IMG/VR virus record: IMGVR_UViG_3300046786_001104
DNA from: a virus
Direction: 5' to 3' (one strand)
Length of the DNA stretch: 47,183 nucleotides
Shown here: positions 31,456 through 33,810 of the stretch, piece after piece
How positions within the stretch are numbered: position 1 is the stretch's first letter
How the letters are laid out: every line of letters starts with the position of its first letter
Position numbers and translations under genes: made by a program
The notes under the pieces: generated by a model
Told to the model about the DNA's origin: nothing
The model's input: only the letters and a program-made list of their open reading frames with translations
Database searches by the model: none

Positions 31456-31965
31456 ATGATGAACAACGCTCCATACGTCGAAATCCGAAAAACTGCCGAT
31501 GGCAATTTCTATAGACTCTTTCGGTCCTCCGACTATAACTACAATTTCGATGTTGCTACCGGTTTCTTTCAACGCTGGGGCAAGACCGAAGAGGAAGACC
31601 CTACTTGGTCTCCTTTTGGTCCTGAAATCATGGATATCGAAATCTCCGATGGCGAGTCTTGTCCGATGACTTGTGCGTTTTGTTCGCCTGCTGGAACTTT
31701 GGTGAATACTCCAAACGGAAAAGTAACAATCGAAAATCTTGTCGCCAAAGATTTGGTAATTGGGTTTGATACGCAGTCTAACTCGCCTAAGGTTCAAGAA
31801 ATTGAGGAGGTATATTCCAGACAATATACAGGCGAGTTGGTTTGTATTGAACTTGATAATGGCCGAATTTTTAAACTTACTCCAGAACATGAAATTTTCA
31901 CGAAGAACCGTGGGTGGATCATGTCTAAGGAATTGTCGGAAACAGATGAAATTGTTGAGTTTTGA
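31456..31965 (+). CDS. radical-SAM protein N-terminal fragment (N-extein) fused to a split-intein N-part
   Basis: DGESCPMTCAF carries two Cys of CxxxCxxC. It is followed by CSPAGTLVNTPNG ... (intein block A) and KLTPEHEIFT (block B TxxH). The ORF stops after about 95 intein residues. Confidence 0.65.
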   Translation: MMNNAPYVEIRKTADGNFYRLFRSSDYNYNFDVATGFFQRWGKTEEEDPTWSPFGPEIMDIEISDGESCPMTCAFCSPAGTLVNTPNGKVTIENLVAKDLVIGFDTQSNSPKVQEIEEVYSRQYTGELVCIELDNGRIFKLTPEHEIFTKNRGWIMSKELSETDEIVEF

Positions 31966-32011
31966 TTTTTTCAAAACCTATATACAGGTGATAGGACTAC
32001 TATCGCCTTAT

Positions 32012-32797
32012 ATGAAAATTGTAAAAACATTATGTCGAAGGTGTGGAAACCAAACCGGAACGGTTGAGAAAGAAAATTCCAAAAAAGAATCGATAATAGA
32101 TAAAAATAAGTATTGTAAAACGTGTGTTGAGAAATACACTCGACTCCGAAACGACAGGATGAAAAATCGTAATCCTGCCAAACAACAATCTATTAAAGAT
32201 AAAATTTCAAATACTTTAAAGCAGAAATACAAAACCGGAGAAATATCCTCTCCTTTTTTAGATCCACTAAAACTTAAAGAAATACAATCAAAAAGAAACG
32301 GATTATCTATTTCTGGGTCTGCTATTATAAGCAGACGAATGAAAATGGAAAATCCAATGTTTGACATAGAGGTTCGAAAACGTGTTTCAAAAACAATCAA
32401 CGAACGTATTAAAAACGGGAAGTTAGTTTACAAAAAAGGACATATCCACCATCTTTACAAAGGAACTAGAACATTCTCCAATGATTGTCGTAAATGGTTA
32501 AAAACGTGGATTCGATCTGTGATGGATAGAGATAAGTTTTCTTGTACGGTATGCAATAAAACCGGAGGATATTTACACACCCACCACATTAGACCTCTAA
32601 GAGACATTATAAAAACCGTGTTGACAACAGAAGGGGTCTCTGATATAGTAAGTGTCAAGTCAAACAACATAACCGAATACGAACGTTTAATACAAAAAGT
32701 AGTAGATTCGCATAGAATGGAAGACGGAATCACAGTTTGTAAACAATGTCACGCTAATATAGACGACCGATACAGAAGAATTAAAAAGACCGTATGA
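32012..32797 (+). CDS. free-standing HNH homing endonuclease lying between the two halves of the fractured radical-SAM gene
   Basis: Different frame from the flanking halves. N-terminal CRRCG ... CKTCV zinc motif. C-terminal CTVCNKTGGYLHTHHIRPL ... CKQCHANID HNH core. The start is trimmed to MKIVKTL within ORF 31760-32797. Confidence 0.65.
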   Translation: MKIVKTLCRRCGNQTGTVEKENSKKESIIDKNKYCKTCVEKYTRLRNDRMKNRNPAKQQSIKDKISNTLKQKYKTGEISSPFLDPLKLKEIQSKRNGLSISGSAIISRRMKMENPMFDIEVRKRVSKTINERIKNGKLVYKKGHIHHLYKGTRTFSNDCRKWLKTWIRSVMDRDKFSCTVCNKTGGYLHTHHIRPLRDIIKTVLTTEGVSDIVSVKSNNITEYERLIQKVVDSHRMEDGITVCKQCHANIDDRYRRIKKTV

Positions 32798-33810
32798 AAA
32801 TCAAAAGCATTAGTCGAGAACATTTTTCGGGAACAGTTTATAATTTTCACTGTTTGCCAAGTGAGAATTATTTTTCAGAAAATGTGTTGGTTCATAACTG
32901 TTACAAGGGAAACAAGAAGGGTGATGCTTCCAAGAGCAATCACATGTCTCTTGAAACGTTCAAGCAAATCTTCGCTACGTTTCCCAAGACGGTGACTCAG
33001 ATTGCTTTTGGCATCACCAGCATTGGGGCTCATCCTGAACTTTTCGACATCTTTCATCATTGTCGGGAAAACCTTGTGGTTCCCAACGTTACCATTAACG
33101 GAATGGATCCGCTTACTGATGAACAGATTGCTAAGTTGAAGAAGCTCTGTGGAGCTATGGCAATCTCTATTAACCGAACCAACAAGGAAAACGGTTTCAA
33201 TCTCATTGATCGACTTATCAAGGCTGGTTGTAAGCAAATCAACATTCACTACGTCATTAGCAAGCAGACTATTGACTTTGCTTATGAAGTCTGTGATGCC
33301 ATCAAGAACGATTCTCGTTTGAAGGAGTTGAATGCTATTGTTTTCCTCGGTCTTAAGCCGAAGGAACGTGGTCAGAACCTTTCCATTTTGCCTATTGATG
33401 ATTACATCAAGTTGGTGAATTATTGTTTGGCAAACAACATTCGGTTTGGGTTCGACTCTTGTTCTGCTCCTCGGTTTGACAAGGCTGTGGAAATCAGTTC
33501 TTTGGACGAAGCGAAGAAGAAGTTGCTTCTTTCTTGTTCCGAACGGTGTGAGTCGGGATTGTTTTCTGCTTACATTGATTCCACCGGGAAGTATTGGCAT
33601 TGTTCGTTCGGCGAAGGGATGGAAATGGCTTATGGAATTGACGTGACGAAAGTTACTGATTTCCAGAAGGAAGTCTGGCTTTCTGAACCGATGAATAAGT
33701 GGCGTAATCGTTTGTTTGAACTTAACCGTGAGTGTCCTTTGTATAAGGAAATTCACATTAGCCCCGAATCGGCTACGGGAGAGTTTCCTGATAAACCTTG
33801 GGCAGTTTAA
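32794..33810 (+). CDS. split-intein C-part (35 aa) fused to the radical-SAM/SPASM-like C-extein
   Basis: MKIKSISREHFSGTVYNFHCLPSENYFSENVLVHN is a C-intein (blocks F/G, terminal HN) followed by Cys+1. The extein resumes CYKGNKKGDASKSNHMSLETF ... and has C-terminal Cys clusters (CSAPRFD ... CSERCESG ... HCSFGEG) like SPASM/twitch auxiliary-cluster domains. Confidence 0.65.
   Translation: MKIKSISREHFSGTVYNFHCLPSENYFSENVLVHNCYKGNKKGDASKSNHMSLETFKQIFATFPKTVTQIAFGITSIGAHPELFDIFHHCRENLVVPNVTINGMDPLTDEQIAKLKKLCGAMAISINRTNKENGFNLIDRLIKAGCKQINIHYVISKQTIDFAYEVCDAIKNDSRLKELNAIVFLGLKPKERGQNLSILPIDDYIKLVNYCLANNIRFGFDSCSAPRFDKAVEISSLDEAKKKLLLSCSERCESGLFSAYIDSTGKYWHCSFGEGMEMAYGIDVTKVTDFQKEVWLSEPMNKWRNRLFELNRECPLYKEIHISPESATGEFPDKPWAV

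Follow-up and report, generated by a model that had tools for sequence, protein, structure and literature searches.

At positions 31456-33810 of the IMG/VR virus record IMGVR_UViG_3300046786_001104, a stretch of 47,183 nucleotides (nt) that is called the window in its full length, the gene of a radical S-adenosylmethionine (SAM) enzyme lies in two pieces with a third gene between them. The arrangement is very probably a functional fractured gene, in which a split class 1 intein sits before the third cysteine (Cys) of the CxxxCxxC motif and an HNH endonuclease gene occupies the break point of the intein. The three open reading frames (ORFs) are on the plus strand. The first, ORF-N (31456-31965), encodes 169 amino acids (aa), a 75-aa N-extein followed by a 94-aa N-intein (IntN). 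The N-extein (31456-31680, residues 1-75) ends in ...ESC69PMTC73AF and holds the first two Cys of the motif. The IntN (31681-31965, residues 76-169 plus the stop codon) starts with block A, CSPAGTLVNT, from its first residue, Cys1, and carries block B as TPEH; the ORF runs ...ISDGESCPMTCAF, then CSPAGTLVNT...KLTPEHEIFT...DEIVEF and the stop. The HNH endonuclease ORF (32012-32797) begins with ATG, lies in a frame different from that of ORF-N and ORF-C and encodes 261 aa, or 269 aa from an alternative GTG start at 31988. ORF-C (32794-33810) encodes 338 aa and opens MKIKSISREHFSGTVYNFHCLPSENYFSENVLVHN, then CYKGNKKGD.... Its first 35 residues are the C-intein (IntC, 32794-32898), in which blocks F and G read ...VYNFHCLPSENYFSENVLVHN and which ends in VLVHN. 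The remaining 303 residues and the stop codon make up the C-extein (32899-33810), whose initial residue, the +1 Cys C76, completes CxxxCxxC as its third Cys.

The start codon of ORF-C lies on the stop of the HNH gene in an ATGA overlap at 32794-32797, and the whole intervening element from IntN to IntC (31681-32898) measures 1218 nt with a non-coding part of only 46 nt. The original prediction, made from the letters of the window alone, had the coordinates and the motifs ESCPMTCAF, CSPAGTLV, TPEHEI and VLVHN right, as it did the separate HNH gene in another frame, and its N-intein of about 95 aa comes to 94 aa when measured. Its 413-aa spliced product is an overestimate from which the C-intein had not been subtracted; the exteins add up to 75 + 303 = 378 aa. 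It had also contrasted exteins of higher guanine-cytosine (GC) content with AT-rich intein and nuclease parts. That contrast is real (N-extein 46.2%, C-extein 43.3%, IntN 39.0%, HNH 33.8%, IntC 30.5%), and it is the exteins, with about 50% GC at third codon positions, that stand out against the window mean of 36.7%, the intein and HNH parts matching the genome. ORF-N and ORF-C share a frame across a gap of 276 codons, a coincidence that was rejected as meaningful because the two halves are in different frames in four related loci (L004, L006, L009 and L013). A group I intron was considered as an alternative; Rfam gave no match, and the element has just those 46 non-coding nt.

The spliced product and the intein halves

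Joined in silico, the two exteins form a 378-aa product in which the motif C69-x3-C73-x2-C76 is present only after splicing. This product matches the family phrog_7293, which includes about 170 records of cultured T4-like phages of Klebsiella, Enterobacter and Cronobacter, in a single uninterrupted stretch (E 7e-76). A tblastn search of cultured phages aligned residues 1-365 in one piece in 171 of the 173 matching records, from T4-like phages (Slopekvirus KP15 and relatives) at about 39% identity. A collection of 5.8 billion proteins contains 1294 homologs, and the uninterrupted ones are up to 89% identical (P0001). An alignment of 82 homologs shows no variation at C69, C73, C76, Y77 and K78, and F75, C76, Y77 and K78 are conserved relative to KP15; from the 82-homolog alignment, the intein therefore separates the second Cys of CxxxCxxC directly from the third, which serves as its +1 nucleophile. 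At the DNA level, deletion of 31681-32898 leaves no indel relative to L012, a syntenic relative with an empty site, and the same holds for L004 compared with L017. The predicted restoration of C-PMT-C-AF-C by the +1 Cys is borne out by a product that is colinear, without a gap, with uninterrupted homologs.

An AlphaFold2 (AF2) model of the spliced product is a single domain with high confidence across the junction (predicted local distance difference test, pLDDT, 95.6; predicted template modelling score, pTM, 0.93). Foldseek placed this model among SuiB, SkfB, CteB, DesII, BlsE, PqqE, EpeE and MoaA, the closest folds being those of SuiB, SkfB and CteB; the enzymes of this group are radical SAM proteins with SPASM/twitch domains whose substrates are peptides or small molecules. 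The Pfam Radical_SAM profile scores 29.6 bits on the product against a gathering score of 29.5. Toward the C terminus, the 82 homologs share C263 and C310 without exception, and at least 90% of them have C292 and C354; these four residues probably bind an auxiliary cluster, and the pattern would fit one such cluster (twitch-like) better than the seven-Cys SPASM pattern. Pfam SPASM gives 13.4 bits on the window protein, below its threshold of 21.5, and a related intein-bearing protein (P0157) passes. Model and fold support classification of the product among the radical SAM enzymes, with a probable SPASM/twitch-like domain for an auxiliary cluster, in line with one of the enzyme classes that had been proposed for it. 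Its fold is shared with SuiB (5v1t), SkfB (6efn), CteB (5wgg), PqqE (6c8v) and EpeE (8ai3) at Foldseek E values of 2e-10 to 1e-5 and template modelling (TM) scores of 0.5-0.59, and it has CxxxCxxC together with four conserved C-terminal Cys. It differs from them in that sequence identity is just 13-16%, the window system is without a precursor of a peptide made on the ribosome and modified after translation (RiPP) or a RiPP recognition element (RRE) domain, and its family, phrog_7293, carries no assigned function. For a role of the enzyme in a defence system, the only sign is a weak pVip match (E 1.6e-5) over the cluster region, and that reading was set aside.

Profile searches found intein blocks on both halves, as the original prediction had proposed to check. 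NCBIfam TIGR01445 (intein_Nterm) scores 37.4 bits on ORF-N against a cut-off of 24.5 and covers residues 76-149, and Pfam Intein_splicing gives 51.6 bits on the fused IntN and IntC against a gathering score of 35.8, with ORF-N alone slightly below the threshold. The closest solved structure is that of NrdJ-1 (8ubs_A, E 1.2e-8), which likewise belongs to a metagenomic fractured gene and is naturally split. Profile scores above their cut-offs, together with a spliced product that matches phrog_7293 in one stretch, argue that the intein signal is not due to chance. The nucleophile of a class 1 intein is present in block A as Cys1, directly after F75; the block B TPEH within KLTPEHEIFT aligns with the TPDH of NrdJ-1; and block G has the penultimate His, the terminal Asn and the +1 Cys (...VLVHN|C). 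Every locus keeps Cys1, the terminal His-Asn and the +1 Cys; TPEH is present in most and replaced in a few, for example by TSEH or TEDH. The two halves are encoded by separate ORFs on the same strand and in the same order, and the break falls between blocks B and F, the canonical insertion point for an endonuclease, as in NrdJ-1.

This intein belongs to a larger lineage. An exhaustive HMMER search, in which 1.84 billion cluster representatives were compared with the 94-aa IntN, returned 1423 relatives; among the best 149, at least 99 lie directly after C-x(n)-C-x-x, 84 with the x3 spacing and 91 with F, Y or W at position -1. Because 86 of the 99 site-matching relatives end with the N-intein, they are split, and at least 86 sequence clusters consist of split N-halves at the motif. 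Their N-exteins fall into two length classes, of about 47-116 and 191-263 aa, and include sequence types such as ...PEIxDIEI..., ...ISTQSGCPxGCxF and ...NITNKCDLN. In a member of the long class (P0144, at locus L018) the N-half is followed by an ORF that shares the zinc-ribbon and NNPM-repeat architecture of the nuclease in the window. The insertion site had been called unusual. That stands for the literature, where the searches found no paper on a split intein in a radical SAM enzyme; in sequence space it does not, for with at least 99 of the best 149 IntN relatives at the same CxnCxx|C position, the site is in fact a hot spot in metagenomic sequence. The lineage, which was not found described in the papers searched, offers a pool of candidate orthogonal trans-splicing tools with an unusual block F Asn.

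The nuclease, recurrence and probable mobility

In the HNH protein a CxxC...CxxC zinc ribbon lies at the N terminus; two RMKxxNPM repeats are also present, and the C-terminal core, CxxC-x7-HTHHI...CKQCH, has the features of a beta-beta-alpha-metal (HNH) catalytic core. It matches four PHROGs families annotated as HNH endonuclease (best E 4.6e-10). A profile of its alignment gave chance matches only when compared with PDB sequences, and tblastn found no match to the protein in cultured phages. The family is small, with 20 proteins among the 5.8 billion; an identical (100%) protein occurs on two other contigs. In all genomic contexts that were examined, the gene lies between the N-half and the C-half of this radical SAM gene, and the same is true of the remotest members of the family, with an identity of only 40-50% and extra zinc ribbons. 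In the N-halves P0150, P0158 and P0198, the N-intein runs in frame into zinc ribbons and another C-terminal domain (LDRIDNxxGYxxxNxRW), which Pfam did not classify and which may be HNH_3/AP2-like. More than one type of nuclease seems to have invaded the same intein break point.

The three-ORF layout with an ATGA or similar overlap recurs in L004, L006/7/8, L009/10/11, L013, L014 and L015/16. At least eight further contigs carry it with all modules intact, in independent assemblies from IMG/VR, JGI, ENA and Logan, which upholds the earlier assignment to the fractured-gene architecture known from environmental phage metagenomes. The exteins of L014 and L015 are far more divergent from those of the window, and one relative sits on a 352-kb contig. 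A search for near-identical DNA of the locus in cultured phages gave no match. Pairwise ratios of nonsynonymous to synonymous substitution rates (dN/dS) lie at 0.07-0.23 for all five modules (N-extein, IntN, HNH gene, IntC and C-extein). Within this range, which includes the HNH gene, the exteins show values of 0.07-0.14 and the intein halves 0.07-0.15 (IntN 0.08-0.15; IntC 0.07 relative to L006). Such values indicate that function is being maintained in the intein halves as well as in the nuclease.

Selection and recurrence together exclude, for practical purposes, two further accounts of the locus. A decaying pseudogene, that is, a radical SAM gene inactivated when an endonuclease gene entered a former intein, would agree with the interruption of the gene and with uninterrupted alleles in close relatives. 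It is very improbable: no module has a frame disruption, dN/dS is low in exteins and intein alike, and the intact layout, with its start codons and ATGA overlap conserved, is found on at least eight independent contigs of widely diverged lineages. The inactivated pseudogene that the original prediction had named as a possible refutation is thus not borne out. An assembly or chimeric-contig artefact that joined unrelated fragments can be dismissed even though the window is probably metagenomic, as the same order and junctions appear in JGI, ENA, Logan and IMG/VR assemblies and the 100% identical HNH protein is found on two other contigs.

The family contains four kinds of allele, one of them being the split intein with its free-standing HNH gene. 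Empty sites are found in L012, L002/3 and L017 and in 99 of the 120 listed homologs. A contiguous mini-intein of 131 aa (P0099, at L005) is 62% identical to the fused intein of the window with a 2-residue gap at the break point; further contiguous mini-inteins are present at the same site in P0157 and P0168, and in P0172 the N-extein, IntN and HNH protein form a single ORF. Since about two residues at the break set the contiguous forms apart from the split ones, a stepwise model for the origin of split inteins becomes directly testable. A neighbour-joining tree of C-exteins (without support values) puts fractured alleles at eight or more separate positions, each nested among empty alleles, and the closest relative of the window on that tree, P0001, is empty. 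This interleaving of empty, contiguous and fractured alleles argues for mobility, and presence or absence among exteins that are 88-93% identical would fit an actively homing element, or one that is often and precisely lost. Together with the exclusive link of the nuclease family to the site, it lends indirect support to homing, in which the nuclease would cut the element-free allele site-specifically and the element would be copied. Sliding identity between fractured and empty alleles showed no clear gradient that would mark a co-conversion tract near the junction.

Candidate expression signals and readings of the fractured gene

A sigma-70-like promoter candidate with a consensus match (TTGACA-17-TAGAGT with TG) lies upstream of ORF-N at 31392-31420 on the plus strand. 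A comparable site is present 5' of ORF-N in five of seven fractured loci, matching at 12 of 12 positions in L014. A second, internal candidate on the same strand (32621-32649; TTGACA-17-TATAGT with TG, 11/12) is located in the HNH gene, 174 nt 5' of ORF-C, and may give ORF-C a separate transcript. Its two hexamers do not change between the window, L006, L013 and L004, unlike the spacer, and the site is absent in L009 and L014. Across the 46-nt gap between ORF-N and the HNH gene, an RNA hairpin is predicted on the plus strand at 31979-32014 (-16.7 kcal/mol, z = -4.87). It buries a Shine-Dalgarno-like AGGUGAU (31986-31992), the GUG at 31988 and the AUG start at 32012 of the endonuclease gene. 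The hairpin is predicted in four loci including the window, and 2 of its 13 pairs are compensatory, which gives it moderate support. The start codons and the ATGA coupling are conserved across loci. The hairpin contains a TATATA(TA)C box, which was considered as a phage promoter similar to the TATAAATA box of the loci of Dassa (2009) and rejected for want of evidence; the TATATAC box is unique in the window, a single occurrence in 47 kb, and TATAAATA is not enriched.

In the functional reading of the fractured gene, the three ORFs would be transcribed in one direction, probably from the promoter 5' of ORF-N, and the internal promoter of the HNH gene may serve ORF-C. ORF-N would yield the N-extein of 75 aa fused to the 94-aa IntN, and ORF-C, with translation started at the ATGA overlap, the 35-aa IntC fused to the 303-aa C-extein. 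The intein halves would then come together in a Hint fold and trans-splice. An N-S acyl shift at Cys1 would come first, followed by trans-thioesterification to the +1 Cys, then by cyclisation of the terminal Asn and finally by an S-N shift. The predicted product is a continuous enzyme of 378 aa, and its C69, C73 and C76 could bind the [4Fe-4S]/SAM cluster. The hairpin over the ribosome-binding region and start codon would hold down translation of the endonuclease, and the endonuclease would cut element-free related alleles in co-infecting genomes, whose repair would copy the 1.2-kb IntN-HNH-IntC cassette.

The closest precedents are the fractured genes described by Dassa (2009), with which the locus shares two same-strand ORFs (N-extein-IntN and IntC-C-extein), an endonuclease ORF at the canonical break, a phage or metagenomic context and a hairpin over the start of endonuclease translation. 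The sizes of IntN and IntC (94 and 35 aa) match a break between blocks B and F, as in NrdJ-1. The hosts in the 2009 set are eight enzymes of DNA synthesis and repair, and the endonucleases are GIY-YIG or Vsr-like. The window differs in both respects, with a radical SAM host and an HNH-type endonuclease; the earlier host and nuclease types are descriptive and not a mechanistic requirement. Further differences are a hairpin without the TATAAATA late-promoter box, an Asn in place of the block F Asp and membership of the large intein lineage described above. The locus supplies the HNH-type case that Dassa et al. had only predicted, and apparently for the first time extends the arrangement beyond enzymes of DNA metabolism to the cofactor-binding motif of a radical SAM enzyme. 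A second precedent is the nrdA gene of phage Aeh1, which is split by the HNH gene mobE and works as two chains, and in which an RNA hairpin restricts translation of mobE (Friedrich, Gibb and Edgell, cited in PMC2677866). There, too, the split in a phage enzyme gene is made by a free-standing homing endonuclease gene of the HNH type; no intein is present and the halves assemble non-covalently, whereas complete intein halves flank the endonuclease gene in the window.

A number of observations weigh against the functional reading. The block F Asp, which according to a recent review helps the first splicing step, is replaced by Asn (VYNFHC, compared with TYDIQ in NrdJ-1), and in the same alignment the His of "HNF" is replaced by Glu. 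The Pfam HNH profile stays below its gathering score on the nuclease (19.1 against 21.4 bits), and a Foldseek search with its AF2 model (pLDDT 83, pTM 0.41) returned nothing significant. The number of promoter-like sites in the region does not exceed shuffle expectation, four sequences make up the hairpin comparison, and one of them, L004, folds weakly (z = -0.72). The patchy distribution on the extein tree could also reflect repeated precise loss, and the case for splicing, nuclease activity and expression is computational throughout. The block F Asn and the "HNF" Glu are invariant across the intein family, contiguous members included, and look like a trait of the lineage rather than decay. 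Because of this invariance the substitutions appear to be tolerated, which does not in itself prove activity.

A rival reading, although an unlikely one, is that the intein has been domesticated as a switch. In the N-precursor, which reads C-PMT-C-AF-C1, Cys1 stands three residues after C73 and completes a pseudo-CxxxCxxC, and a disulfide between Cys(-3) and Cys1, or a prematurely bound cluster, would block the first step of splicing until conditions become reducing. The contiguous intein of Pyrococcus abyssi MoaA (Callahan et al. 2011) provides the nearest documented precedent, since two reviews (PMC3922620, PMC10663303) describe a native Cys(-3)-Cys1 disulfide that controls its splicing. It likewise has a radical SAM host and a Cys at position -3 relative to Cys1, as in C73-A-F-C1; it differs in being contiguous, archaeal and in MoaA, and its site may be at the same position of CxxxCxxC. 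The exact position is kept by at least 99 related inteins, and the position of Cys1 in the cluster motif raises the question of redox- or Fe-S-gated splicing. Against such a switch, the Cys at -3 is imposed by the host motif, conserved motifs are favoured as homing sites, and an element found patchily among exteins that are nearly identical resembles a selfish one rather than a fixed regulator. Were it true, splicing would be gated by oxygen, redox state or iron-sulfur availability and the oxygen-labile enzyme would be put together solely when conditions are reducing; the split inteins, in at least 86 sequence clusters, would then form a widespread post-translational switch in phages and not merely a parasite.

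The possibility that the enzyme works as two non-covalent subunits, with the intein halves serving merely as high-affinity association domains, is improbable. Genes that function after being split by endonucleases without splicing are reviewed by Dassa (2009), with Aeh1 NrdA as a precedent, and the change from Asp to Asn in block F could mean impaired catalysis. Yet loci whose exteins are far more divergent from those of the window keep Cys1, TxxH, the terminal His-Asn and the +1 Cys without exception, and dN/dS of the intein is about 0.1. The contiguous P0099, P0157 and P0168 share the same block F and must splice for any enzyme to be made, as 131 aa would otherwise sit in the cluster loop. 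In the window, likewise, the break is in the 8-residue CxxxCxxC loop, and an unspliced junction would add about 130 residues at the cluster.

Neighbouring genes and possible substrate

A probable partner or substrate gene (33815-34309, plus strand) begins 5 nt after the stop of ORF-C; its product opens MKIRSGFVSNSSSSSF and contains IDHQS and RNDN motifs. All the loci have the radical SAM gene among arrays of paralogs that open M-K-x-R-x-G-F-V-S-N-S-S-S-S-S-F. The window has seven copies, with starts at about 22815, 23073, 23845, 24568, 24955 and 25567 in the interval 22815-26061 and the seventh at 33815-34309. There are ten in L002 (5513-10800) and seven in L009 (95-4605), and further paralogs are found in L004 and L012 (1234-1722); the bodies of these proteins are divergent and 80-220 aa long. 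Their only family match is phrog_7397 of PHROGs (unknown function), and searches of Pfam, NCBIfam, the PDB and the literature gave nothing for them. In the subfamily with long N-exteins (P0144, at L018 502-1431, and 24-28 other long N-halves), an N-terminal domain with the motifs RxGxATNSSSxHS, [IV]DHQS and GGNDN is fused to the radical SAM enzyme, and a split intein of the same type interrupts these genes, too, at CxxxCxx|C. The three motifs are shared with the ORF at 33815-34309, which establishes a gene-fusion link between the domain and the enzyme. The substrate of the enzyme is probably a protein or peptide, and the adjacent GFVSNSSSSSF proteins are candidate partners or substrates; a domain of this type offers a lead to the function of phrog_7293.

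Directly 5' of ORF-N, the plus-strand interval 28821-31388 encodes a GHKL-type ATPase (HATPase_c_3; PADLOC MzaB, E 2.3e-11) and, after it, an N6/N4 DNA methyltransferase (type II methyltransferase profiles, E 1e-29); the gene 5' of the N-half in L006 has a weak LAGLIDADG_3 match instead. Farther upstream, the plus-strand gene at 26097-28604 encodes an 835-aa protein that matches the Major Vault Protein domains PF11978 MVP_shoulder (E 8.6e-22) and PF17795 Vault_3 (E 2.6e-12). It has no PHROG match and is unexpected in a phage-like genome. A 503-aa protein encoded at 20359-21870 (plus strand) matches DUF2828 and DUF7788 (E 7e-44 and 3e-47).

Six tRNA genes (Leu-TAA twice, Leu-CAA, Ile-TAT, Gly-TCC and Gly-GCC) lie on the minus strand at 14678-18879. 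ORFs that are HNH-like by motif occur among them at 14678-15163 (minus) and 18175-18798 (plus), with similar ones at 6419-7120 (plus) and 9812-10441 (minus), and the window appears to be rich in free-standing nuclease genes.

On the 3' side, the gene at 34296-35231 has two Pfam matches, to Epimerase (E 5.5e-59) and to GDP_Man_Dehyd (E 2.5e-21), and looks like an epimerase/reductase of the GDP-fucose-synthase type; the gene at 7629-8864 resembles GDP-mannose 4,6-dehydratase by sequence only. Phosphoribosyltransferase-like and histidine-phosphatase genes follow the epimerase at 35215-36593, in a block that is syntenic with L006 and L012. The gene at 41972-43483 matches the ATPase family phrog_1297 (E 4.3e-14), and the one at 43452-44852 matches phrog_1314, annotated as an HNH endonuclease (E 2.9e-45); the tentative labels MoxR-like AAA+ ATPase for the former and VWA-like for the latter come from inspection of the sequences alone.

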